Assembly (NCBI RefSeq): GCF_057098645.1
Contig: NZ_CM169472.1
Direction: 5' to 3' (one strand)
DNA: 64,000 nt
Positions within the stretch are counted from its first letter, which is position 1; each line of letters opens with the position of its first letter. Below are positions 1 to 15,250 of the stretch, piece by piece. The position numbers and the translations under genes are program-made. The notes below the pieces were generated by a model. That model was not told the origin of the DNA, did no database searches, and was given only the letters and a program-made list of their open reading frames with translations.

Positions 1-2268
1 ATGGCCGTTAAAGCCTCCGGGCGTTTTGTCCCTCCGTCAGCATTTGCCGCAGGCACCGGTGAGACGTTTACCGGTGCTTATGCATGGAACGCGCCACGCG
101 AGGCCGTCGGGCGCGAAAGACCCCTTACACGTGACGAGATGCGTCAGGTGCAAGGTGTTTTATCCACGATTAATCGCCTGCCTTACTTTTTGCGCTCGCT
201 GTTTACTTCACGCTATGACTACATCCGGCGCAATAAAAGCCCGGTGCACGGGTTTTATTTCCTCACATCCACTTTTCAGCGCCGTTTATGGCCGCGTATT
301 GAGCGCGTGAATCAGCGCCATGAAATGAACACCGACGCGTCGTTGCTGTTTCTGGCAGAGCGTGACCATTATGCGCGTCTGCCGGGGATGAATGACAAGG
401 AGCTGAAAAAGTTTGCCGCCCGTATCTCATCGCAGCTTTTCATGATGTATGAGGAACTCTGCGATGCATGGGTTGATGCACATGGCGAGAAAGAATCGCT
501 GTTTACAGATGAGGCGCAGGCGCATCTGTATGGTCATGTTGCTGGCGCTGCACGTGCTTTCAATATTTCCCCTCTCTACTGGAAAAAATACCGTAAAGGA
601 CAGATGACCACGAGGCAGGCATATTCTGCCATTGCCCGTCTGTTTAACGATGAGTGGTGGACTCATCAGCTTAAAGGCCAGCGTATGCGCTGGCATGAGG
701 CGTTACTGATTGCTGTCGGGGAGGTCAATAAAGACCGTTCTCCTTATGCCAGTAAACATGCCATTCGTGATGTGCGTGCACGCCGCCAGGCAAATCTGGA
801 ATTTCTTAAATCGTGTGACCTCGAAAACAGGGAAACCGGCGAGCGCATCGACCTTATCAGTAAGGTGATGGGCAGTATTTCTAATCCTGAAATTCGCCGG
901 ATGGAGCTGATGAACACCATCGCCGGTATTGAGCGTTACGCCGCCGCAGAGGGTGATGTGGGGATGTTTATCACTCTGACCGCGCCGTCAAAGTATCACC
1001 CGACACGTCAGGTCGGAAAAGGCGAAAGTAAAACCGTCCAGCTAAATCACGGCTGGAATGATGAGGCATTTAATCCAAAGGATGCGCAGCGTTATCTCTG
1101 CCGCATCTGGAGCCTGATGCGCACGGCATTCAAGGATAATGATTTACAGGTCTACGGTTTGCGAGTCGTCGAGCCACACCACGACGGAACGCCGCACTGG
1201 CATATGATGCTTTTTTGTAATCCACGCCAGCGTAACCAGATTATCGAAATCATGCGTCGCTATGCGCTCAAAGAGGATGGTGACGAAAGAGGAGCCGCGC
1301 GAAACCGTTTTCAGGCAAAACACCTTAACCGGGGCGGTGCTGCGGGATATATCGCGAAATACATCTCAAAAAACATCGATGGCTATGCACTGGATGGTCA
1401 GCTCGATAACGATACCGGCAGGCCGCTGAAAGACACTGCCGCGGCTGTTACCGCATGGGCGTCAACGTGGCGCATTCCGCAATTTAAAACGGTTGGCCTG
1501 CCGACAATGGGGGCTTACCGTGAACTACGCAAATTGCCTCGCGGCGTCAGCATTGCTGATGAGTTTGACGAACGCGTCGAGGCTGCACGCGCTGCCGCAG
1601 ACAGTGGTGATTTTGCGTTGTATATCAGCGCGCAGGGTGGGGCAAATGTTCCGCGCGATTGTCAGACTGTCAGGGTTGCCCGTAGTCCGTCGGATGAAGT
1701 TAACGAGTACGAGGAAGAAGTCGAGAGAGTGGTCGGCATTTACGCGCCGCATCTCGGCGCGCGTCATATTCATATCACCAGAACGACGGACTGGCGCATT
1801 GTTCCGAAAGTGCCGGTCGTTGAGCCTTTGACTTTAAAAAGCGGCATCGCCGCGCCTCGGAGTCCTGTCAATAACTGTGGAAAGCTCACCGGTGGTGATA
1901 CTTCGTTACCGGCTCCCACACCTTCTGAGCACGCCGCAGCAGTGCTTAATCTGGTTGATGACGGTGTTATCGAATGGAATGACCCGGAGGTCGTGAGGGC
2001 GCTCAGAAGCGCATTAAAACACGACCTGAGAAGACCAAACCGTCAGCAAAGAAACGGAAGCCCGTTAAAACCACATGAAATTGCACCATCGGCCAGACTG
2101 ACCCGGTCTGAACGATTGCAAATCACCCGTATCCGTGTTGACCTTGCTCAGAACGGTATCAGGCCGCAGCGATGGGAGCTTGAGGCGTTGGCGCGCGGGG
2201 CAACAGTAATTTATGAAGGTGAGCGGTTTAGTTATGCTGTAAAAGACGATTGGGTGATGTTTTCTTAA
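1..2268 (+). CDS. A: Replication initiation endonuclease gpA (rolling-circle HUH nickase)
   Basis: 755-aa ORF starting MAVKASGRFVPPSAFAAGTG, as in P2 gpA. It has the HUH-like EPHHDGTPHWHMM motif and the GYIAKYISK tyrosine motif. The last ~20 codons diverge from P2 and become AT-rich. Confidence 0.95.
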   Translation: MAVKASGRFVPPSAFAAGTGETFTGAYAWNAPREAVGRERPLTRDEMRQVQGVLSTINRLPYFLRSLFTSRYDYIRRNKSPVHGFYFLTSTFQRRLWPRIERVNQRHEMNTDASLLFLAERDHYARLPGMNDKELKKFAARISSQLFMMYEELCDAWVDAHGEKESLFTDEAQAHLYGHVAGAARAFNISPLYWKKYRKGQMTTRQAYSAIARLFNDEWWTHQLKGQRMRWHEALLIAVGEVNKDRSPYASKHAIRDVRARRQANLEFLKSCDLENRETGERIDLISKVMGSISNPEIRRMELMNTIAGIERYAAAEGDVGMFITLTAPSKYHPTRQVGKGESKTVQLNHGWNDEAFNPKDAQRYLCRIWSLMRTAFKDNDLQVYGLRVVEPHHDGTPHWHMMLFCNPRQRNQIIEIMRRYALKEDGDERGAARNRFQAKHLNRGGAAGYIAKYISKNIDGYALDGQLDNDTGRPLKDTAAAVTAWASTWRIPQFKTVGLPTMGAYRELRKLPRGVSIADEFDERVEAARAAADSGDFALYISAQGGANVPRDCQTVRVARSPSDEVNEYEEEVERVVGIYAPHLGARHIHITRTTDWRIVPKVPVVEPLTLKSGIAAPRSPVNNCGKLTGGDTSLPAPTPSEHAAAVLNLVDDGVIEWNDPEVVRALRSALKHDLRRPNRQQRNGSPLKPHEIAPSARLTRSERLQITRIRVDLAQNGIRPQRWELEALARGATVIYEGERFSYAVKDDWVMFS

Positions 2269-2351
2269 ACTGATGGCATCATGATACATTAACAAATCTG
2301 AAGCAATACTTTAGTAGTCGTGCATTAATAACTTATAAGGAATTATTATCG

Positions 2352-3674
2352 ATGAGTGCGTTAAGGGATGAAGTATCTATGAAGGTTGCGTTCTCTAATG
2401 GCATGATAAACAAATTATGCAAAAGTTTTTTTTATAGTCATGGTAAGGAGCAGCCTTGTATTCAAGTCGGTAAAGCATTAGAAGATTTTGTTTTTTGGCT
2501 TGCATATAATGATGAGGAGATTGCAAAATGTGCTAGTAGGTTATTAAAAGCATATGGCCCCCAATTAGGTATAAGTAACCTTCATAATGCGAAAAGATTA
2601 TTGTTAGGTTTTTGTTCTGAAGCCTTCAATCGCATTGATGCTGATTTTTTGTCGCTTAATCCTGATAAGATTTGTGTTGATGATATTATAACGCAAGTTC
2701 ATAGAAAAAATCTTAGTGAGATGTTTAAGTGTTATATACTTTCACGAATAAAATCCTGTCCATATATTTATAATCTTGGGTGTGCTGGCTTTGATGGGAA
2801 GCTTGAGCTTAGAGAAAATTTATTTTTATATGGCCCGGGGCTAGGGGTGGAATTACTTTCTGATATTAAAGACAAAACTGACATCAAGGTTCCTGTTGAT
2901 TTTTATGATGATGAATATATGCGGCATAAACCAATTGGGAAATATTTTCGACAGTCAAAATCCTGCTTGGTGGTGGCATATGCTTCATCAGAGGATAAAG
3001 CGGTGAAAATGTTTGATAGTTTGTTTGGAGCTTTATGTCTTGCAGTTGATAATCCTTTTGCGATTAATCGAGTTGCTGTTAATAATCTAGTTGAGTCTTT
3101 TGGTGTCGGGAAATATCATGAAAGTGAGTTTCGGGTGAATATTCCGTCTGTAAATAATTTAAATATAACGGATTCAACCTTGGCGATACTTACAAAAATA
3201 CTTTCATCACCTGATAAAAGGATGTTGTCTGCTCTTTCCTTTATAGCGCACGGGTGGAGAGATGACAAACGTGAAAGGTTTTTGAATCAATTTATAGCAT
3301 TGGATGCTATGTATGGAACCAATAATGGTAATAAAAATTCAATTATTGGCGGTGTTTGCAGAGATGCGGCGAAAATTATTGATATTGATTCAAAAATAGG
3401 AATAATCTATGAGCTTAGGTGTAAGTTTGTTCATGGAGATATTTCATCGTTATCTGATAATGATAGCTATCGAAAGTTTATTGATAGCTATGGCGTGGAC
3501 CCTATTGTTTCTCTTTTTGAAATTCTTAAAGAATGCGTCCTTAATTATAATGGTACTTACAAAACGCCAAAAGATGTTGGAAAGGCAGATAGGTCTATTT
3601 GCGTTCCTGCTGAGTTGCTTCCAGCGGTTGAGAGGATGATAGCGGAATACAGTGGAGTTAAAAAAACAAACTAA
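2352..3674 (+). CDS. Hypothetical cargo protein with a C-terminal HEPN-like domain (Rx4H), possibly an RNase-type abortive-infection effector
   Basis: 440-aa uninterrupted ORF with AAGGA 11 nt upstream of the ATG. It is strongly AT-rich (19/60 G+C at 2401-2460 versus 43/60 at 9001-9060 in the phage backbone). It has FIALDAMYG (aa 314-322) and YELRCKFVHGD (R356..H361, nt 3417-3434). It sits in the P2 old/tin position. The function is an inference. Confidence 0.6.
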   Translation: MSALRDEVSMKVAFSNGMINKLCKSFFYSHGKEQPCIQVGKALEDFVFWLAYNDEEIAKCASRLLKAYGPQLGISNLHNAKRLLLGFCSEAFNRIDADFLSLNPDKICVDDIITQVHRKNLSEMFKCYILSRIKSCPYIYNLGCAGFDGKLELRENLFLYGPGLGVELLSDIKDKTDIKVPVDFYDDEYMRHKPIGKYFRQSKSCLVVAYASSEDKAVKMFDSLFGALCLAVDNPFAINRVAVNNLVESFGVGKYHESEFRVNIPSVNNLNITDSTLAILTKILSSPDKRMLSALSFIAHGWRDDKRERFLNQFIALDAMYGTNNGNKNSIIGGVCRDAAKIIDIDSKIGIIYELRCKFVHGDISSLSDNDSYRKFIDSYGVDPIVSLFEILKECVLNYNGTYKTPKDVGKADRSICVPAELLPAVERMIAEYSGVKKTN

Positions 3675-3815
3675 AGATGTTCTTTTTAGCCTCGCCTGCA
3701 TTAGGTGCATAAATTTGCATTCATTTTCAAATATATCTTTTGACAGCGAGCACCAGAACAGGCGCTTGCCGGGGGGATGATGCACCTGCATTAAAACCGC
3801 CCCATGAAGCGGGCG

Positions 3816-3834
3816 GGCGAGGCGGGGAAAGCAC
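3816..3834 (+). other. cos: P2 cos cohesive-end sequence (19 nt)
   Basis: GGCGAGGCGGGGAAAGCAC is present exactly. This matches the P2 cohesive end as I recall it. It lies at the expected position between the old/tin locus and portal gene Q. Confidence 0.75.
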
Positions 3835-3975
3835 TGCGCGCTGGCGGTGGTGCTGATTTTATTTTTTCAGCGTCTGAGCGCGTCGTGAAGGCGCTTAGTC
3901 TGCCCGTTGAGGCGTTGGTGTGTCTGCGGGGTGTTTTGTGCGGTGGTGAGCGTGTGAGGGCGTGATGACGGGGTG

Positions 3976-4003: not shown

Positions 4004-5038
4004 TCAGCCGTTGTCAGTGTCCAGTGAGTAGTTTTTAAAGCGGATGACCTCCTGACCGAGCCAGCCGTTTATCTCGCGGATCCTGTCCTGTAGCGGGATA
4101 AGCTCATTGCGGACAAAGACCTTTACCACTTTCTCAATATCACCCAGCGACCCGACGTTCTCCGGCTTGCCGCCCATCAACTGAAAGGGGATGCGGTGCG
4201 CGTCCAGCAGGTCAGCGGCGCTGGCTTTTTTGATATTAAAAAAATCGTCCTTCGTTGCCACTTCACTGAGCGGGATAATTTTAATGCCGTCGGCTTTCCC
4301 CTGCGGGGCATAGAGAAACAGGTTTTTAAAGTTGTTGCGGCCTTTCGACTTGACCATGTTTTCGCGAAGCATTTCGATATCGTTGCGATCCTGCACGGCA
4401 TCGGTGACGTACATGATATATCCGGCATGAGCGCCGTTTTCGTAATACTTGCGGCGGAACAGCGTGGCCGACTCATTCAGCCAGGCAGAATTAAGGGCGC
4501 TGAGATATTCCGGCAGGCCGTACAGCTCCTGATTAATATCCGGCTCCAGCAGGTGAAACACGGAGCCGGGCGCGAAGGCTGTCGGCTCGTTGAAGGACGG
4601 CACCCACCAGTAAACATCCTCCTCCACGCCACGGCGGGTATATTTTGCCGGTGAGGTTTCCAGTCTGATGACCTTACCGGTGGTGCTGTAACGCTTTTCC
4701 AGAAACGCATTACCGAACACCAGAAAATCCAGCACAAAGCGGCTGAAATCCTGCTGGGAAAGCCACGGGTGCGGAATAAACGTTGAAGCCAGAATATTAC
4801 GTTTGACGTAAATCGGTGAGCTGTGATGTACGGCAGCACGCAGGCTTTTTGCCAGACCGGTAAAGCTGACCGGTGGCTCATACCATCTGCCGTTACTGAT
4901 GCACTCGACGTAATCCAGAATGTCACGGCGGTCGAGTACCGGCACCGGTTCACCAAAGGTGAATGCCTCCATTTTCGGGGCGCTGGCGGTCATTTTTTTT
5001 GCCGCAGGTTGCGGTGTTTTCCCTTTTTTCTTGCTCAT
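4004..5038 (-). CDS. Q: Portal protein gpQ
   Basis: 344-aa ORF, the same length as P2 Q. It overlaps the start/stop of P in the usual P2 arrangement. Confidence 0.93.
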   Translation of the reverse strand: MSKKKGKTPQPAAKKMTASAPKMEAFTFGEPVPVLDRRDILDYVECISNGRWYEPPVSFTGLAKSLRAAVHHSSPIYVKRNILASTFIPHPWLSQQDFSRFVLDFLVFGNAFLEKRYSTTGKVIRLETSPAKYTRRGVEEDVYWWVPSFNEPTAFAPGSVFHLLEPDINQELYGLPEYLSALNSAWLNESATLFRRKYYENGAHAGYIMYVTDAVQDRNDIEMLRENMVKSKGRNNFKNLFLYAPQGKADGIKIIPLSEVATKDDFFNIKKASAADLLDAHRIPFQLMGGKPENVGSLGDIEKVVKVFVRNELIPLQDRIREINGWLGQEVIRFKNYSLDTDNG

Positions 5039-6810
5039 CAGTAAAACTCCAGAATGGTGGATGTCAGCGGGGTGCTGATACCGGCGGTGAGTGGCTCATT
5101 TAACAGGGCGTGCATGGTCGCCCAGGCGAGGTCGGCGTGGCTGGCTTCCTCGCTGCGGCTGGCCTCATAGGTGGCGCTGCGTCCGCTGCTGGTCATGGTC
5201 TTGCGGATAGCCATAAACGAGCTGGTGATGTCGGTGGCGCTGACGTCATATTCCAGACAGCCACGGCGAATAACGTCTTTTGCCTTGAGCACCATTGCGG
5301 TTTTCATTTCCGGCGTGTAGCGGATATCGCGTGCGGCGGGATAGAACGAGCGAACGAGCTGGAACACGCCGACACCGAGGCCGGTGGCATCAATTCCGAT
5401 GTATTCGACGTTGTATTTTTCGGTGAGTTTGCGGATGGATTCAGCCTGGGTGGCAAAGTCCATGCCTTTCCACTGGTGACGTTCAAGTATTCTGAATTTG
5501 CCACCGGCCACCACCGGCGGTGCCAGCACCACGCATCCGGCACTGTCGCCACGGTGTGACGGGTCGTAACCAATCCATACCGGGCGGGAGCCGAACGGAT
5601 TGGCGGCAAAGGGTGCATAGTCTTCCCATTCTTCCAGCGTGTCGACCATGCAGCGTTGCAGCTCCTCGAACGGGAACACCGACGCCTTGTCGTCAACAAA
5701 TTCACACATGAACAGGTTTTTAAAATCGTCGGCGCTGTTTTCGCGTTTGAGCTGCTCAATGTCGAACAGCGTGCAGCCACCTTTCAGGGCGTCCTCAATG
5801 GTGACAATCTGTCGCCACTGGCCGTCCGCACAGAGAAGCCCACCGGCAAGGGCGTTATGACTGACGTCGATTTCCACGCGTTCGGCGGCGCTGGCGCGTC
5901 CCCGGTTATACAGTTCACCCGACCAGAACGGGTAGGCGTCGTGCGCCAGCGTGGACGGGGTGGAGAAATAGGTCGAACGCAGGTGACTCTGTGAGGCCAT
6001 ACCTGATGCCACCTTACGCAGTACCTGAAAATTCGGGATCCAGAAAATCTCGTCGACGTACAGGTCGCCGTTATGGCTCTGCGCGGTGTTGGAGTTGGTG
6101 CCGAGAAAAATCAGTTTTGCGCCGTTATTGCCCAGGACAATCGGATCACCGGTCAGGTCAACGTCAACCAGACGGGCAAAGGCGATGATGTATTCGCGGA
6201 ACACATACGCCTGCGTTTTACTGGCCGACAGAAAAATCTGGTTATGACCGGTTTTCAGGGCGCGCAGCAGCGCCTCGCGGGAAAAATAAAATGTCGCGCC
6301 AATCTGGCGGGATTTCAGGATATCGCGGATGCGGTGCTCAAGCCCGGCGCGATACCAGTGCAACTGATAATCGAAAGACTGCTCAAAGAAAATCTGCTCC
6401 AGCTTTTCGATGGCCTCGTCACTGAAAAAATTCTTTTTCGGTTTGCGCCGCCCGCCTTTGTTGCGGTTAGCGACGTTCGGATTAAGGTCTGCCTCGTTGC
6501 CGGTCTGGCTGTAGCGGTTTACCCGTGCCAGTCGTTCAATCTGGCGTCCGAGCAGGTCAATTTCCTTGAAATCACCGCCGGTTTTCTGCGGTTTGATGAT
6601 GAGCTGGGTCAGCCGCGCTTCCAGACTCATTTCGACACGGCTGATGGGGGCAACGCTGTCCCAGCCGTCGCGCTGTTTCCAGCTCTGCACCGTCGGGCGT
6701 TTCATCTGCAACATGGCGGCAATCTGCGGCACGGAAAATCCCTGCCAGTACAGCAGCGCCGCCTGACGACGCGGGTCGTGTAAAAGAGTGGTGTCTGTGG
6801 TGATGGTCAT
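5038..6810 (-). CDS. P: Terminase large subunit gpP
   Basis: I chose the start at MTITTDTTLLHDPRRQ, giving 590 aa as in P2 P. The ORF track extends 10 codons further upstream. Confidence 0.93.
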   Translation of the reverse strand: MTITTDTTLLHDPRRQAALLYWQGFSVPQIAAMLQMKRPTVQSWKQRDGWDSVAPISRVEMSLEARLTQLIIKPQKTGGDFKEIDLLGRQIERLARVNRYSQTGNEADLNPNVANRNKGGRRKPKKNFFSDEAIEKLEQIFFEQSFDYQLHWYRAGLEHRIRDILKSRQIGATFYFSREALLRALKTGHNQIFLSASKTQAYVFREYIIAFARLVDVDLTGDPIVLGNNGAKLIFLGTNSNTAQSHNGDLYVDEIFWIPNFQVLRKVASGMASQSHLRSTYFSTPSTLAHDAYPFWSGELYNRGRASAAERVEIDVSHNALAGGLLCADGQWRQIVTIEDALKGGCTLFDIEQLKRENSADDFKNLFMCEFVDDKASVFPFEELQRCMVDTLEEWEDYAPFAANPFGSRPVWIGYDPSHRGDSAGCVVLAPPVVAGGKFRILERHQWKGMDFATQAESIRKLTEKYNVEYIGIDATGLGVGVFQLVRSFYPAARDIRYTPEMKTAMVLKAKDVIRRGCLEYDVSATDITSSFMAIRKTMTSSGRSATYEASRSEEASHADLAWATMHALLNEPLTAGISTPLTSTILEFY

Positions 6811-6879
6811 GAATACCTCGCCGTGATGAATACACGGCAAGGCTACTGAGTCGCGCCCCGCGATTCGCTAAGGTGCTGT

Positions 6880-6983: not shown

Positions 6984-7838
6984 ATGGCAAAAAAAGTCTC
7001 AAAATTCTTTCGTATCGGCGTTGAGGGTGACACCTGTGACGGGCGTGTCATCAGTGCGCAGGATATTCAGGAAATGGCCGAAACCTTTGACCCGCGAGTC
7101 TATGGTTGCCGCATTAACCTGGAACATCTGCGCGGCATCCTGCCTGACGGTATTTTTAAGCGTTATGGCGATGTGGCCGAACTGAAGGCCGAAAAGATTG
7201 ACGATGATTCGGCGCTGAAAGGCAAATGGGCGCTGTTTGCGAAAATCACCCCGACCGATGACCTTATCGCGATGAACAAGGCCGCGCAGAAGGTCTATAC
7301 CTCAATGGAAATTCAGCCGAATTTTGCCAATACCGGCAAATGTTATCTGGTGGGGCTGGCCGTCACCGATGACCCGGCAAGCCTCGGCACGGAATACCTG
7401 GAATTCTGCCGCACGGCAAAACACAACCCTCTGAACCGCTTCAAATTAAGCCCTGAAAACCTGATTTCAGTGGCAACGCCTGTTGAGCTGGAATTTGAAG
7501 ACCTGCCTGAAACCGTGTTCACCGCCCTGACTGAAAAGGTGAAATCCATTTTTGGCCGCAAACAGGCCAGCGATGACGCCCGTCTGAATGACGTGCATGA
7601 AGCGGTGACCGCTGTTGCTGAACATGTGCAGGAAAAACTGAGCGCCACTGAGCAGCGCCTCGCTGAGATGGAAAACGCCTTTTCCGCACTTAAGCAGGAG
7701 GTGACTGACAGGGCGGATGAAACCAGCCAGGCATTCACCCGCCTGAAAAACAGTCTCGACCACACCGAAAGTCTGACCCAGCAGCGCCGCAGCAAGGCCA
7801 CCGGCGGTGGCGGTGACGCCCTGATGACGAACTGCTGA
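6984..7838 (+). CDS. O: Capsid scaffold protein gpO
   Basis: The start at MAKKVSKFFRIGVEGDTCDG gives 284 aa as in P2 O. The longer ORF-track start is rejected. Confidence 0.93.
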   Translation: MAKKVSKFFRIGVEGDTCDGRVISAQDIQEMAETFDPRVYGCRINLEHLRGILPDGIFKRYGDVAELKAEKIDDDSALKGKWALFAKITPTDDLIAMNKAAQKVYTSMEIQPNFANTGKCYLVGLAVTDDPASLGTEYLEFCRTAKHNPLNRFKLSPENLISVATPVELEFEDLPETVFTALTEKVKSIFGRKQASDDARLNDVHEAVTAVAEHVQEKLSATEQRLAEMENAFSALKQEVTDRADETSQAFTRLKNSLDHTESLTQQRRSKATGGGGDALMTNC

Positions 7839-8969: not shown

Positions 8970-9713
8970 ATGACGAGTCCCGCACAGCGCCACATGATGC
9001 GGGTCTCGGCAGCGATGACCGCGCAGCGGGACGCCGCCCCGCTGCGACATGCAACTGTCTATGAGCAGATGCTGGTCAAGCTGGCCGCAGACCAGCGCAC
9101 ACTGAAAGCGATTTATTCAAAAGAGCTGAAGGCCGCGAAAAAACGCGAACTGCTGCCGTTCTGGTTGCCGTGGGTGAACGGCGTGCTGGAGCAGGGCAAA
9201 GGTGCACAGGATGACATTCTGATGACGGTCATGCTGTGGCGTCTGGATACCGGCGATATTGCCGGTGCGCTGGAGATTGCCCGTTATGCCCTGAAGTACG
9301 GTCTGACCATGCCGGGTAAACACCGCCGCACCCCGCCGTACATGTTCACCGAGGAGGTGGCGCTCGCGGCCATGCGCGCCCACGCTGCCGGTGAGTCTGT
9401 GGATACCCGCCTGCTGACGGAGACCCTTGCACTGACCGCCACGGCAGACATGCCTGATGAAGTGCGCGCAAAGCTGCACAAAATCACCGGTCTGTTTCTG
9501 CGTGACGCTGGTGATGCCGCCGGTGCGCTGGCTCACCTGCAACGTGCGACACAGCTCGACTGTCAGGCAGGCGTCAAAAAAGAGATTGAACGACTGGAGC
9601 GGGAGCTGAAACCGAAGCCGGAGCCGCAGCCCAAAGCGGCCACCCGCGCCCCGCGTAAGACCCGGAGCGTGACACCGGCAAAACGTGGACGCCCGAAAAA
9701 GAAAGCCAGTTAA
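8970..9713 (+). CDS. M: Terminase small subunit gpM
   Basis: 247-aa ORF in the P2 M position. It has a basic C-terminal tail (KRGRPKKKAS). Confidence 0.9.
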   Translation: MTSPAQRHMMRVSAAMTAQRDAAPLRHATVYEQMLVKLAADQRTLKAIYSKELKAAKKRELLPFWLPWVNGVLEQGKGAQDDILMTVMLWRLDTGDIAGALEIARYALKYGLTMPGKHRRTPPYMFTEEVALAAMRAHAAGESVDTRLLTETLALTATADMPDEVRAKLHKITGLFLRDAGDAAGALAHLQRATQLDCQAGVKKEIERLERELKPKPEPQPKAATRAPRKTRSVTPAKRGRPKKKAS

Positions 9714-9812
9714 CAACCGAATGCGCCCCGCGCCAGGGCGGCACGCCGGTCAGTGAGGGTGAATCACCTGACACTGCACCGGCGTCCACCGCCCGACTTT
9801 TCAGAGGTAGTC

Positions 9813-10322
9813 ATGATGACGCTGATTATTCCGCGAAAGGAGGCTCCCGTGTCCGGTGAGGGTACGGTGGTCATCCCGCAACCGGCAGGCGACGAGCCGG
9901 TGATTAAAAACACGTTCTTTTTTCCCGATATCGACCCGAAGCGCGTCCGGGAACGTATGCGCCTTGAGCAGACCGTCGCCCCCGCCCGTCTGCGTGAGGC
10001 CATCAAGTCAGGCATGGCGGAGACAAATGCGGAGCTGTACGAGTACCGCGAACAGAAAATTGCCGCCGGTTTTACGCGTCTGGCGGACGTCCCGGCGGAC
10101 GATATCGACGGTGAAAGCATCAAAGTTTTTTACTACGAGCGCGCCGTGTGTGCGATGGCGACCGCGTCGCTTTATGAGCGTTATCGCGGCGTGGATGCCA
10201 GTGCGAAAGGTGACAAGAAGGCTGACAGCATTGACAGCACCATTGATGAGCTGTGGCGGGATATGCGCTGGGCGGTGGCGCGTATCCAGGACAAACCGCG
10301 CTGCATCGTGAGTCAAATCTGA
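9813..10322 (+). CDS. L: Head completion/stabilisation protein gpL
   Basis: The start at MMTLIIPRKEAPVSGEG gives 169 aa as in P2 L. Confidence 0.9.
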   Translation: MMTLIIPRKEAPVSGEGTVVIPQPAGDEPVIKNTFFFPDIDPKRVRERMRLEQTVAPARLREAIKSGMAETNAELYEYREQKIAAGFTRLADVPADDIDGESIKVFYYERAVCAMATASLYERYRGVDASAKGDKKADSIDSTIDELWRDMRWAVARIQDKPRCIVSQI

Positions 10323-10525
10323 TGAAGACCTTTGCGCTACAGGGCGACACGCTCGACGCCATTTGTGTCTGGTATTACGGGCGCACTGAGGGCGTGGTCG
10401 AAGCCGTGCTCGCCGCAAATCCGGGACTGGCTGAACTGGGGGCGGTGCTGCCGCACGGCACCGCCGTCGAACTGCCCGACGTTCAGACCGCGCCCGTGGC
10501 TGAAACTGTCAATCTGTGGGAGTAA
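10322..10525 (+). CDS. X: Tail protein gpX
   Basis: 67-aa product MKTFALQGDTLDAICVWYYGRTEG. The ATG overlaps the L stop (ATGA). Confidence 0.88.
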   Translation: MKTFALQGDTLDAICVWYYGRTEGVVEAVLAANPGLAELGAVLPHGTAVELPDVQTAPVAETVNLWE

Positions 10526-12291: not shown

Positions 12292-12721
12292 TGCCGTCAC
12301 GGTGCTGAAAACCAGCCCCGAGATGCTGCGGATATTCGTGGATAACGGGAGTATTGCCTCCACACTGGCGACGTCACTGTCATTCGAAAAGCGTTACACG
12401 CTCAATGTCATTGTGACCGATTTTACCGATGATTTTGACCTGCTCATCGTGCCGGTGCTGGCGTGGCTGCGGGAAAATCAGCCCGACATCATGACCACCG
12501 ACGAAGGTCAGAAAAAGGGCTTCACGTTTTATGCAGACATCAACAATGACAGCAGCTTTGATATCAGCATCAGCCTGATGCTGACCGAGCGCACGCTGGT
12601 CAGTGAGGTGGACGGCGCACTGCATGTGAAGAATATCCCGGAACCCCCGCCGCCGGAGCCGGTCACCCGCCCGATGGAGCTGTATATCAATGGCGAACTG
12701 GTGAGCAAGTGGGATGAATGA
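12254..12721 (+). CDS. R: Tail completion protein gpR
   Basis: 155-aa ORF in the P2 R position and of the P2 R length. Confidence 0.9.
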   Translation: MLKPDSLRRALTDAVTVLKTSPEMLRIFVDNGSIASTLATSLSFEKRYTLNVIVTDFTDDFDLLIVPVLAWLRENQPDIMTTDEGQKKGFTFYADINNDSSFDISISLMLTERTLVSEVDGALHVKNIPEPPPPEPVTRPMELYINGELVSKWDE

Positions 12722-13163
12722 GTTTAAGCGTTTTGAAGACCGGCTGACCGGAATGATTGAGTCGCTGTCACCGTCAGGGCGTCGGCGACTGGCGGTAGAT
12801 ATTGCGAAGAAACTGCGCCAGCGCCAGCAGCAGCGAATTAAATTACAAAAAGGCCCGGATGGTACGCCGTATGTACCGAGAAAAAACCAACCAGTGCGAA
12901 ATAAGAAAGGCCGGATAAAGCGGGAAATGTTTGTGAAATTACGCACTAACCGGTTTATGAAAGCAACAGCTAGCGAGAGTGCGGCGGTGGTGGAGTTTAC
13001 TGGTAAGGTTGAGTGTATTGCGAGAGTACATCAATTTGGGTTGGCTGATAAGCCTAGTTACAACAGTAAGGCTGTGGTTTATCCTGTTCGTATACTTATG
13101 GGAATCTCAGAGCGTGATACGAAATTTGTTGAAGAAGTTATTATTCGCTACCTATCTCATTAG
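12714..13163 (+). CDS. S: Tail completion protein gpS (3' third is compositionally foreign)
   Basis: 149 aa starting MNEFKRFEDRLTG as in P2 S. G+C falls from 32/60 (12721-12780) to 22/60 (13081-13140). Confidence 0.88.
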   Translation: MNEFKRFEDRLTGMIESLSPSGRRRLAVDIAKKLRQRQQQRIKLQKGPDGTPYVPRKNQPVRNKKGRIKREMFVKLRTNRFMKATASESAAVVEFTGKVECIARVHQFGLADKPSYNSKAVVYPVRILMGISERDTKFVEEVIIRYLSH

Positions 13164-13263: not shown

Positions 13264-14508
13264 CTAAATCCAGCGAAGGTAGAATAGTAAGTAAGGATCT
13301 CTGATGTCTAATACATCGCTTTCTTGATCCCACTCGATAATACTGCTATTTGCAGCATCGTTGGCAATAGCAGTTGAGTGCTGACATGCACTGGTTATAC
13401 TAGAACCGCTTGGGCTATCGCCATGACATAACGAGGTCACTCGAGATACTAAGTCAGAATAACGAAATGTCAGCGTCGGAGGATTAGAAGCAATGGCTTT
13501 TAATAAAAAGACATAAACATCGCCTTGCCAGCCATCTTTTGATATATATGATTTTCTATCAGAACCACGCACTTTAGGTCCTTCGCGCATTTTATCCACA
13601 ATCGTGCTGTAATCTGCTGACTGAAGTGTACGTTTGCACACTCTTTGCAATGTGGCAATATCTTTTTGATATTTTATTGAAGTATCAGAAGTCTCTCTGA
13701 CATTCATTTCAAAACAAGAGTTTAAGCATAAATATTGCATTAGTTGTGGTGAGCCTGCGGACTCTTTTACTAACTCACTTATAACTTCATCAGAGGCATC
13801 TATATTGAGTAGTTTGAATCCTTTCTGAGCAATAATTTTTAAGGTTGATTCATCCCAATAATCAAAATCAATATTAAATATCCGGCCTCGTAAGTCAGAG
13901 TTACCCCGAAGAACATCATCAGAATGATATGGCACTGATGCACAAATAAATTTGCAGCCATTAGCTATGGCATCTTTTATTTGTCGTGATAGTTCGGCTT
14001 GAGCTTCTTTAGCAATATAGTGAAAATCATCGATAAAGATAACATAATCTGTGTTTGCGATTTCTCGCTTCATTAGTTGAAAGAGATCTATCGCAAATGA
14101 TTCTGAGGTTTGATCTGCTGTACTATAACCAGCGGATGCAGACCCTTTAAGACTACCTTTTGCTAAAATTACACCAGCTTGGGCAGATAATTCTCCTGTA
14201 CTTGAAAATGATGAGGTGCCAGTTTTACTTTGAACTTGGGTTACTGGTACACCAAGTATGTCGAAAACGCGCTTCCATAAATCATTAGCAGATTGAACCC
14301 CTGCTCCAGTTACTTCGATTAGCCTCTGGGTTCCAAGTACTTTCTTAACAAAGACAGTTTTTCCTGATTTTGATGGGCCAGAGATAGAAATCAGCATGGT
14401 GCCCATCTCAAGTGTATCGATTAACTGTTGCTGTTTAGATACTAGGTGATCCTCAACCAGTGTGTGGTTGGGATAACCGCCTGGGATAAAAACCTCTGTC
14501 GCCTTCAT
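13264..14508 (-). CDS. Orphan AAA+ (ORC/Cdc6- or ExeA/TniB-like) ATPase of unknown function; candidate defence cargo
   Basis: 414-aa ORF antisense to the tail operon. Walker A is GPSKSGKT (nt 14356-14379). Walker B is YVIFIDDFH. A sensor-like SAGSPQLMQYLC is present. It is AT-rich (17/60 G+C at 13801-13860). The function is an inference. Confidence 0.6.
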   Translation of the reverse strand: MKATEVFIPGGYPNHTLVEDHLVSKQQQLIDTLEMGTMLISISGPSKSGKTVFVKKVLGTQRLIEVTGAGVQSANDLWKRVFDILGVPVTQVQSKTGTSSFSSTGELSAQAGVILAKGSLKGSASAGYSTADQTSESFAIDLFQLMKREIANTDYVIFIDDFHYIAKEAQAELSRQIKDAIANGCKFICASVPYHSDDVLRGNSDLRGRIFNIDFDYWDESTLKIIAQKGFKLLNIDASDEVISELVKESAGSPQLMQYLCLNSCFEMNVRETSDTSIKYQKDIATLQRVCKRTLQSADYSTIVDKMREGPKVRGSDRKSYISKDGWQGDVYVFLLKAIASNPPTLTFRYSDLVSRVTSLCHGDSPSGSSITSACQHSTAIANDAANSSIIEWDQESDVLDIRDPYLLFYLRWI

Positions 14509-14614: not shown

Positions 14615-15250
14615 ATGAATATAAATCACTCATTACAAGAGCTTGCGCGTGCACTGCGCAACATGATCCGCACCGGTATTATCGTCGAAACCGACCTTAA
14701 CGCCGGTCGCTGCCGTGTGCAGACCGGCGGCATGTGCACCGACTGGCTTCAGTGGCTGACCCATCGTGCCGGACGTTCGCGCACATGGTGGGCACCTTCC
14801 GTGGGGGAACAGGTGCTGATTCTGGCTGTGGGCGGTGAACTCGACACGGCGTTCGTTCTGCCGGGGATTTATTCCGGCGATAACCCCGCGCCGTCTGCGT
14901 CGGCGGATGCCCTGCATATCCGTTTCCCTGACGGGGCGGTGATTGAGTATGAACCCGAAACCAGTTCACTGACGGTAAGCGGAATTAAAACGGCCAGCGT
15001 GACGGCTTCTGATTTTGTTACTGCCACGGTGCCGGTGGTCACGGTGAAAGCATCAACCCGCGTCACCCTGGACACACCGGAGGTGGTCTGCACCAACAGG
15101 CTGATTACCGGCACGCTGGAAGTGCAGAAGGGCGGGACGATGCGCGGCAACATTGAACACACCGGCGGTGAACTCTCATCAAACGGTAAGGTACTGCATA
15201 CCCATAAACACCCCGGCGACAGTGGCGGCACAACAGGGGGACCTCTATGA
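14615..15250 (+). CDS. V: Baseplate central spike gpV
   Basis: 211 aa, the P2 V length. From residue ~8 it reads QELARALRNMIRTGIIVETDLNAGRCRVQTGG as in P2. The first 7 codons differ and no Shine-Dalgarno is visible. Confidence 0.92.
   Translation: MNINHSLQELARALRNMIRTGIIVETDLNAGRCRVQTGGMCTDWLQWLTHRAGRSRTWWAPSVGEQVLILAVGGELDTAFVLPGIYSGDNPAPSASADALHIRFPDGAVIEYEPETSSLTVSGIKTASVTASDFVTATVPVVTVKASTRVTLDTPEVVCTNRLITGTLEVQKGGTMRGNIEHTGGELSSNGKVLHTHKHPGDSGGTTGGPL

Follow-up and report, generated by a model that had tools for sequence, protein, structure and literature searches.

Introduction

The HEPN anticodon nucleases ApeA, DARNA and HepS act by abortive infection and, like PrrC, cut tRNA anticodon loops. 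Cryo-electron microscopy and biochemistry have described ApeA as a doughnut-shaped decamer or dodecamer with a ligand pocket, which aborts infection by cleaving tRNA anticodons after activation by its ligand. Here we describe a gene for a 440-residue HEPN protein that occupies the hotspot between replication gene A and the cohesive-end site (cos) of a P2-like prophage, within a 64,000-nucleotide stretch of contig NZ_CM169472.1 (NCBI RefSeq assembly GCF_057098645.1), referred to below as the window. On balance, this cargo gene probably encodes a prophage-borne single-protein anti-phage system, in which a sensor is fused to a HEPN ribonuclease. As judged from sequence profiles, the catalytic core of the cargo protein is homologous to that of ApeA, and the protein is best described as one that works like ApeA without being an ApeA.

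Systems of this kind, i.e., single-protein sensor-HEPN abortive systems in a prophage hotspot, are already well established, and four of the 21 systems of Vassallo et al. (2022) were located in the P2 A-cos slot. None of the Vassallo systems matched the cargo protein in PADLOC, which is understood to carry those models. The protein itself has been recorded before. In Table S5 of Rousset et al. (2022) the accession WP_063267205 is labelled as a 'HEPN_Apea' P2 locus, based on HHpred/HH-suite. DefensePredictor (2026) lists a 440-residue allele as a 'Predicted novel defense gene' on a mean log-odds of 8.53, with values from 6.71 to 12.28 against a stringent cut-off of 4, and gives an HHblits match of 80.7% to Gao_Ape/ApeA over 8.6% of the protein. 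A first-pass annotation of the window, which had proposed a candidate abortive-infection nuclease that might be undescribed, was too strong on this last point in view of these two entries and of a descriptive RefSeq name. The accession was not found by a full-text search, and the protein goes unmentioned in a 2026 survey on the P2/P4 hotspots. The clone termed 'Putative HEPN' by Rousset et al. (pFR103) is a different gene; its product (MNDIFVLT...) is another protein, namely the DUF4209 cargo that phage vB_EcoM-569R9 carries as well. What is new here is the delineation of a broad two-domain family that has only the catalytic core in common with ApeA and carries a presumed sensor domain without a known fold.

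Results

A C-terminal HEPN domain with an invariant Rx4H motif

The C-terminus of the cargo protein is a HEPN domain with an invariant Rx4H motif. The first-pass annotation had placed the two elements of this domain exactly: a helix FIALDAMYG (residues 314-322) is followed by the segment YELRCKFVHGD, which contains R356 and H361. Over 160 C-terminal domains of the superfamily, R356 is conserved throughout (160/160), while H361 and G362 are found in 159 each, P384 in 158, D318 in 157 and G322 in 150. A bare Rx4H motif arises in 28% of shuffles of the cargo protein; the motif alone is therefore not significant, and its weight comes from the conservation.

In the predicted model, the domain forms an all-alpha, up-and-down helical bundle that carries the motif on a core helix. 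The structural matches of the predicted model are modest, and Foldseek, run with the full model on the PDB, found no match at E < 1. When residues 1-275 were modeled separately, no HEPN protein appeared among the top 60 structure matches, which assigns the HEPN matches to the C-terminal domain. The same partial model alone reproduced matches to TetR and COQ9 structures at the same Z, so that these belong to the N-terminal helices.

Sequence comparison of the HEPN core with ApeA

A profile of 41 diverse C-terminal domains was searched against the PDB sequences with hmmsearch. The best match was Ec4ApeA (9hxm, E = 0.012), which aligned in two pieces, 'RFtaywsALESL' with 'RFinlFiaLDAL' and 'LYlLRNtivH' with 'LYkLRnelvH'. 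The Rx4H motif of the cargo protein is thereby in register with 'LRNTIVH' of Ec4ApeA (R508/H513 in the 609-residue plasmid copy). For a comparison by hhalign, the Ec4ApeA gene was taken from plasmid NZ_CP109698.1 and its family was gathered. Against unspliced ApeA, the C-terminal domain of the cargo family scored 31% (E 5e-4). With the insertion in ApeA removed, four choices of the cut gave 90-92% (E ~8e-7) over ~90 columns, aligning arginine to arginine and histidine to histidine. As controls, the first two helices of ApeA alone reached 73% (E 3e-5), the first two helices joined to wrong segments 55-60% (E ~1e-4) and the catalytic helix alone 50% (E 1.6e-4). The splice points in ApeA were picked from a prior alignment, and the control splices behaved as expected. 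The resemblance to Apea-like HEPN proteins that had been proposed for this gene thus holds for the catalytic core.

Outside this core, an hhalign comparison of the full-length cargo family with the Ec4ApeA family found nothing in the N-terminal 270 residues. The PADLOC model of ApeA matches residues 15-224 of Ec4ApeA (E = 3e-8), but not the cargo protein. The Pfam family HEPN_Apea (PF18739) gave no hmmscan match for the cargo protein, 26 homologs or 20 distant relatives; as the verified Ec4ApeA has no match either, the missing Pfam match carries no weight. With a fragment of Ec4ApeA as query, no match was obtained in a large protein collection. One distant member of the family (P0062) bears the UniRef name 'Apea-like HEPN', which was not reproduced with current Pfam. 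The Ec4ApeA gene itself (1475-3301 on the NZ_CP109698.1 locus) is labelled only 'hypothetical protein' on many enterobacterial plasmids; the copy used here adjoins the anti-phage gene ppl.

A two-domain family and its N-terminal domain

The Escherichia coli cargo protein is identical to RefSeq WP_063267205.1 ('HEPN domain-containing protein'), shares 98% identity with cluster P0001 and matches the unannotated family PHROG 23812 over its full length. The gene is present, with an intact open reading frame (ORF), in 45 of 5,426 complete E. coli genomes. Close homologs in a large protein collection fall into 26 clusters with 45-98% identity over nearly the full length. All of them are from Gammaproteobacteria (Escherichia, Citrobacter, Enterobacter, Serratia, Vibrio, Shewanella, Pseudoalteromonas and Idiomarina), and the full-length homologs outside Escherichia share 45-71% identity with the cargo protein. 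The alignment of the close homologs contains 59 invariant positions, including R356 and the block R307-E-R-F-L-N...F-I-A-L-D318. No match to the cargo protein was obtained by tblastn against 50,697 phage records or by phmmer against the PDB sequences.

A search of 1.84 billion representatives with a profile of the close-homolog alignment returned 230 proteins at E ≤ 0.001, each representing a cluster at 50% identity. Most of these proteins have 400-480 residues, and the matching segment is C-terminal. The N-terminal regions were also found to be homologous across subgroups: in N-terminal-only hhalign comparisons, the subgroup of the cargo protein matched a second subgroup at 97.5% (E = 5e-12, 230 columns), and the second subgroup matched the largest at 98.1% (E = 7e-14). 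For this reason, the two-domain architecture is, at the level of sequence, the unit of conservation.

The first-pass annotation had recognized nothing in the N-terminal part, and indeed these ~270 residues match no known fold. Its helical subdomain is weakly reminiscent of the bundles that bind ligands in TetR-family regulators and in COQ9. A Zn-binding role of the two cysteine-containing stretches was ruled out, since none of C23, C36, C136 and C144 is constant in 27 homologs.

A foreign gene between P2 gene A and cos

The gene for the 440-residue protein is cargo of foreign origin within the P2 A-cos hotspot (Table 1). Position 1 of the window is the ATG of P2 gene A, which shares ~97% identity with many Peduovirus genomes. 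To the right, the 19-mer GGCGAGGCGGGGAAAGCAC, which we take to be the P2 cos end, has a single match, with 0 expected by chance. The slot between both landmarks is occupied by one ORF only. With a 6-kb query, the flanks were ~97% identical to many Peduovirus genomes, and the central 26% was not in common. Junction alignment against two P2-like phages with other cargo put the limits of the insert at ~2269 and ~3780. The gene hence lies between gpA and cos/gpQ, in a segment that varies among near-identical phages; at the same position other phages carry a Fic/VbhT protein, a DUF4209 protein, Dcm together with paraMORC3, or a cytolethal distending toxin. The G+C content of the cargo ORF is 0.351, compared to 0.532 in gene A and 0.556 over the portal and terminase genes, and it drops from 0.51-0.57 to 0.33-0.37 over 2250-3750 before recovering. 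The position, the single ORF and the foreign composition had all been described correctly in the first-pass annotation, down to the 60-base G+C counts of 19/60 at 2401-2460 and 43/60 at 9001-9060.

Table 1 Features of the A-cos slot, the cargo gene and its surroundings. Positions refer to the window unless a locus of a relative (L008 to L010) is given.
Feature	Position	Strand	Basis or remark
P2 gene A (replication endonuclease), left flank of the hotspot	1..2268	+	755-residue ORF; RefSeq 'replication endonuclease'
Intergenic region upstream of the cargo gene, with candidate weak promoter and ribosome-binding site	2269..2351	+	Partly kept in the Enterobacter P2-like homolog locus
Cargo gene, 440-residue two-domain HEPN protein	2352..3674	+	Alternative start ATG 2379
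Family-specific N-terminal alpha/beta and helical domain, residues 1 to ~273	2352..3170	+	Presumed sensor/regulatory module
C-terminal HEPN domain, residues ~274-400	3171..3551	+	All-helical, without insertions
Conserved helix FIALDAMYG, residues 314-322, including D318	3291..3317	+	Aligns with ApeA 'WSALESL'
Predicted catalytic motif R356-x4-H361, followed by G362	3417..3434	+	Conservation; in register with Ec4ApeA
Remainder of the insert 3' of the cargo gene, up to the return of P2 backbone identity	3675..3780	+	Alignment against two phages with other cargo
P2 cos cohesive-end sequence (presumed), right landmark of the hotspot	3816..3834	+	Exact unique 19-mer match
Portal gene (gpQ), right flank	4004..5038	-	ORF list and RefSeq
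Terminase gene	5038-6840	-	ORF list and RefSeq
198-residue Phage_integrase gene near marine HEPN homologs	L008 10775-11371; L009 4082-4678; L010 9379-9975		

The start codon is ambiguous. An AAGG(A/G) motif precedes each of the candidate ATGs (2352 and 2379), and the E. coli locus has both in common with that of Enterobacter. The second ATG, equivalent to M10, is the annotated start of most homologs, and residues 1-7 have a predicted local distance difference test (pLDDT) score below 50 in the predicted structure. Upstream, a -10-like TA(C/T)ATT at ~2285-2290 is common to the cargo region and the P2-like locus of the Enterobacter homolog. Neither a second ORF nor a tandem repeat occurs in the insert, and Rfam gave no meaningful match, both matches being far under the gathering scores. 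An RNA or small-protein antitoxin was thus ruled out, with neither these elements in the insert nor a conserved neighbor to provide one.

Between the cargo gene and cos, at 3707-3720, lies a semi-conserved element GCATAAATTTGCAT (pattern GCATnAAnnTGCA). Elements of the GCATAAATTTGCAT type adjoin three unrelated cargos in different P2-like phages. The element may be part of a conserved cos-proximal region, or it may be a recombination junction for cargo swaps.

The cargo locus is found at record coordinates 2200-3898 in the complete E. coli chromosomes NZ_CP135653.1, NZ_AP040168.1 and NZ_AP040215.1 and at 2200-3901 in NZ_CP124374.1. These assemblies appear to have been rotated to begin at the P2 replication gene, and a start-fixing tool may have mistaken the prophage gene for the chromosomal start.

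The prophage carries a second AT-rich cargo gene (13264-14508, minus strand, G+C ~0.38), which sits between the tail genes S (12714-13163) and V (14615-15250). Its 414-residue product contains a Walker A sequence GPSKSGKT. In PADLOC this product matches PDC-S59, a candidate single-gene system (E = 2.8e-31), and it has a weak match to AAA_22.

Genomic context of relatives

Of ten relatives sampled, eight lie in cargo slots of prophages or in integrative or defence islands. The Enterobacter homolog (62% identity) is the sole cargo between gene A and the portal gene of a P2-like prophage, as in the window, and the Serratia homolog occupies another P2 cargo slot, between the tail genes S and V, which in the present prophage holds the gene for the 414-residue protein. 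The Vibrio homolog adjoins a CBASS pair and a HEPN-RES gene, the Pseudoalteromonas homolog lies in an integrase island with Schlafen/AlbA_2 and helicase genes, and the Idiomarina homolog is found among IS21, McrB-N and NOV_C genes. Among distant members, one adjoins Kiwa and a type IV restriction enzyme, another adjoins a Gabija-like pair, GmrSD and AbiEi, and a further one is near BrxA/HsdM. No neighboring gene was conserved across the sampled contexts.

An HNH protein was considered as a conserved partner and rejected, since unrelated HNH genes adjoin the Vibrio and the metagenomic homologs, one of these genes encoding a type IV restriction enzyme. Within Vibrio, the same 222-residue protein and the same 374-residue HNH_5 protein flank the HEPN homolog in three contexts (7079-7747 and 9397-10521 on locus L007; also L008 and L009). 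PADLOC matched neither protein, and the P2 version has neither of the two genes, which could be cargo of their own or accessory genes specific to the lineage. A 198-residue gene of the Phage_integrase family lies directly downstream of the Pseudoalteromonas HEPN homolog and, in Vibrio, downstream of the trio of 222-residue, HEPN and HNH_5 genes (Table 1). This arrangement suggests that in marine Gammaproteobacteria the HEPN gene travels in a small recombinase-associated cassette.

Discussion

We infer nuclease activity, abortive infection and an anti-phage function for the cargo protein. By analogy to ApeA, HepS, DARNA and PrrC, the protein would be made in the lysogen in an inactive state. 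Its HEPN domains would pair to build a composite active site, the arrangement from which HEPN dimers draw their metal-independent ribonuclease activity, and the N-terminal domain would detect an infection cue, either directly or through control of oligomerisation. The activated ribonuclease would then cut cellular RNA, most probably tRNA anticodon loops, since these are cut by all four analogs. Such cleavage would stop translation and abort the infection, whereby the lysogen population and the prophage within it would be protected.

Several points weigh against this reading. The target RNA, the trigger and the oligomeric state proposed for the cargo protein are drawn purely from analogy. Unless ApeA is spliced, the link to it is marginal, and PDB searches with profiles of two distant subgroups over their full length did not reproduce the ApeA match. 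A consensus promoter scan of 2269-2351 found no site. The P2 hotspot also holds non-defence cargo, i.e., partition systems and cytolethal distending toxin, and two of the ten sampled relatives are in non-defence, housekeeping-like neighborhoods. Rousset et al. (2022) catalogued the protein, which is not among their tested systems, and in DefensePredictor (overall validation rate 45%) it stands in the prediction table only; in the literature we found no experiment on the protein or its family. Finally, hmmscan with Pfam, NCBIfam and PADLOC models returned nothing meaningful for the cargo protein, for 26 homologs or for 20 distant relatives. The checks by HMMER/HHpred and by PADLOC that had been proposed in the first-pass annotation were accordingly divided in outcome: hmmscan against Pfam and PADLOC gave no match, but the published HHpred/HH-suite label reads 'HEPN_Apea' and the published HHblits match to ApeA is 80.7%. 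The failure to place the protein in any named defence system was likewise confirmed with PADLOC, its ApeA model included.

Among other explanations, it is unlikely that the gene encodes a HEPN toxin that serves the mobile element, for instance by prophage addiction, by exclusion of rival prophages or plasmids or as the toxin of a hidden antitoxin, rather than defence against lytic phages. At the cargo locus there is no adjacent antitoxin gene or repeat-RNA antitoxin, and small ORFs, tandem repeats and RNA-family matches that could encode one are missing from its surroundings. No neighbor is conserved across contexts, the large conserved N-terminal domain fits a built-in regulator better, and DefensePredictor scores the protein as defensive.

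The cargo protein could also be a plain member of the known ApeA (Gao_Ape) system, which we regard as improbable. Such membership would agree with the label given by Rousset et al., with Gao_Ape/ApeA as the best HHblits match, with Ec4ApeA as the top PDB sequence match, with the 92% alignment of the spliced HEPN cores and with the single-gene organization with a C-terminal HEPN domain. Yet the similarity spans only ~9% of the protein in HHblits and ~90 columns in hhalign, the N-terminal 270 residues are unmatched, and the PADLOC model that finds Ec4ApeA passes over the cargo protein, which also differs from ApeA in length, number of domains and layout of the HEPN domain (see below).

Equally improbable is a HEPN-like domain of non-defensive function, engaged in RNA processing, in regulation or in ligand binding without catalysis. 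HEPN domains include non-catalytic, nucleotide-binding members, and the two relatives in housekeeping-like neighborhoods as well as the non-defence cargo of the hotspot would be in line with such a role. Against it, R356, H361 and G362 are nearly invariant over 160 diverse sequences, which speaks for catalysis. In addition, mobile or defence-associated surroundings make up eight of ten contexts, and the gene shows the strong AT bias and the patchy distribution (45/5,426 E. coli genomes) that accessory conflict genes typically have. It is highly improbable, and was already disfavored, that the hotspot passively holds a remnant that is decaying or has lost its function: two E. coli alleles differ by five nonsynonymous and two synonymous changes, a crude ratio of nonsynonymous to synonymous substitution (dN/dS) of ~0.66 that is too sparse to infer selection, but the ORF is unbroken in the window as in 45 complete genomes, homologs of full length with 45-71% identity keep 59 invariant positions, and both domains are conserved over the superfamily.

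Returning to a prophage-borne protein that couples a sensor to a HEPN ribonuclease, we can tentatively speculate that the N-terminal domain is a new infection sensor, which would bind a small molecule or a nucleic-acid fragment made during infection and switch on the compact HEPN ribonuclease. If true, the family of 230 matches would be a streamlined ApeA counterpart in its own right, with a separate trigger chemistry, and not just a divergent ApeA. If its function is confirmed, the cargo protein would add a further single-protein HEPN immunity family, with a sensor domain lacking a known fold. This family is broadly distributed and was missed by PADLOC v2 and by the Pfam, NCBIfam and PHROG annotations. 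The presence of its members in two P2-like cargo slots and in chromosomal defence islands illustrates the movement of genes between hotspots and islands. As they share a core and differ in the presumed sensor, the cargo protein and ApeA would then form a natural pair for asking how one ribonuclease effector is coupled to different infection signals. The advance is nonetheless incremental and not conceptual, the kind of system being well known and the gene having been flagged twice in published supplementary data.

Comparison with known systems

Minimal HEPN proteins such as HepT SO_3166 (5yep, 7ae2, 8xdj), HI0074 (1jog) and TTHA0636 (1wwp) have ~120-145 residues and MNT antitoxin or nucleotidyltransferase partners, whereas the cargo protein has no such partner and shares 5-10% sequence identity with them. 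Like P2 old/tin and the other A-cos systems (Rousset et al. 2022; Vassallo et al. 2022), the cargo gene is AT-rich accessory cargo next to cos, in the slot of genes that exclude other phages. The encoded proteins, however, are unrelated, and the cargo protein is absent from the systems tested in the Rousset and Vassallo studies.

HepS, the 'HEPN solo' protein of the Gifsy-1 prophage, is likewise prophage-encoded, single-gene and partnerless; it is a constitutively produced anticodon nuclease that protects the lysogen. HepS is a stand-alone HEPN protein of fewer than 250 residues (R100-H105) and directly senses the siphovirus tail-tip protein J. In contrast, the cargo protein has an extra N-terminal domain of 270 residues and no detectable sequence similarity to HepS. 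DARNA (PD-T7-3), an abortive tRNA anticodon nuclease that forms large oligomers, also combines a HEPN ribonuclease with a domain without known fold in a single protein, and in DARNA this domain is the sensor. The order of domains is reversed, however, with an N-terminal HEPN domain (R117-x4-H122) and a C-terminal domain sensing single-stranded DNA. The PADLOC model of PD-T7-3 gave no match for the cargo protein, and identity with DARNA or HepS was ruled out by the architecture, i.e., a C-terminal HEPN domain within 440 residues.

With ApeA, the cargo protein has in common the single gene, the C-terminal HEPN domain, the large non-catalytic N-terminal part and the location in mobile elements and defence islands. 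The core consensus common to the cargo family and ApeA consists of an 'RF..ALxxL' helix and 'LY.LR(N/x)xxxH'. The cargo protein has 440 residues and two domains, compared to ~580-620 residues and three domains in ApeA, and neither the N-terminal (catenin-like) nor the Mid (PafA-like) domain of ApeA has detectable similarity in the cargo protein. Its HEPN domain is compact, whereas that of ApeA is split by an insertion of ~70 residues; the spacing between the conserved helix and the motif is ~35 residues in the cargo protein and ~130 in Ec4ApeA. By analogy, ApeA offers the best template for a possible mode of action of the cargo protein.

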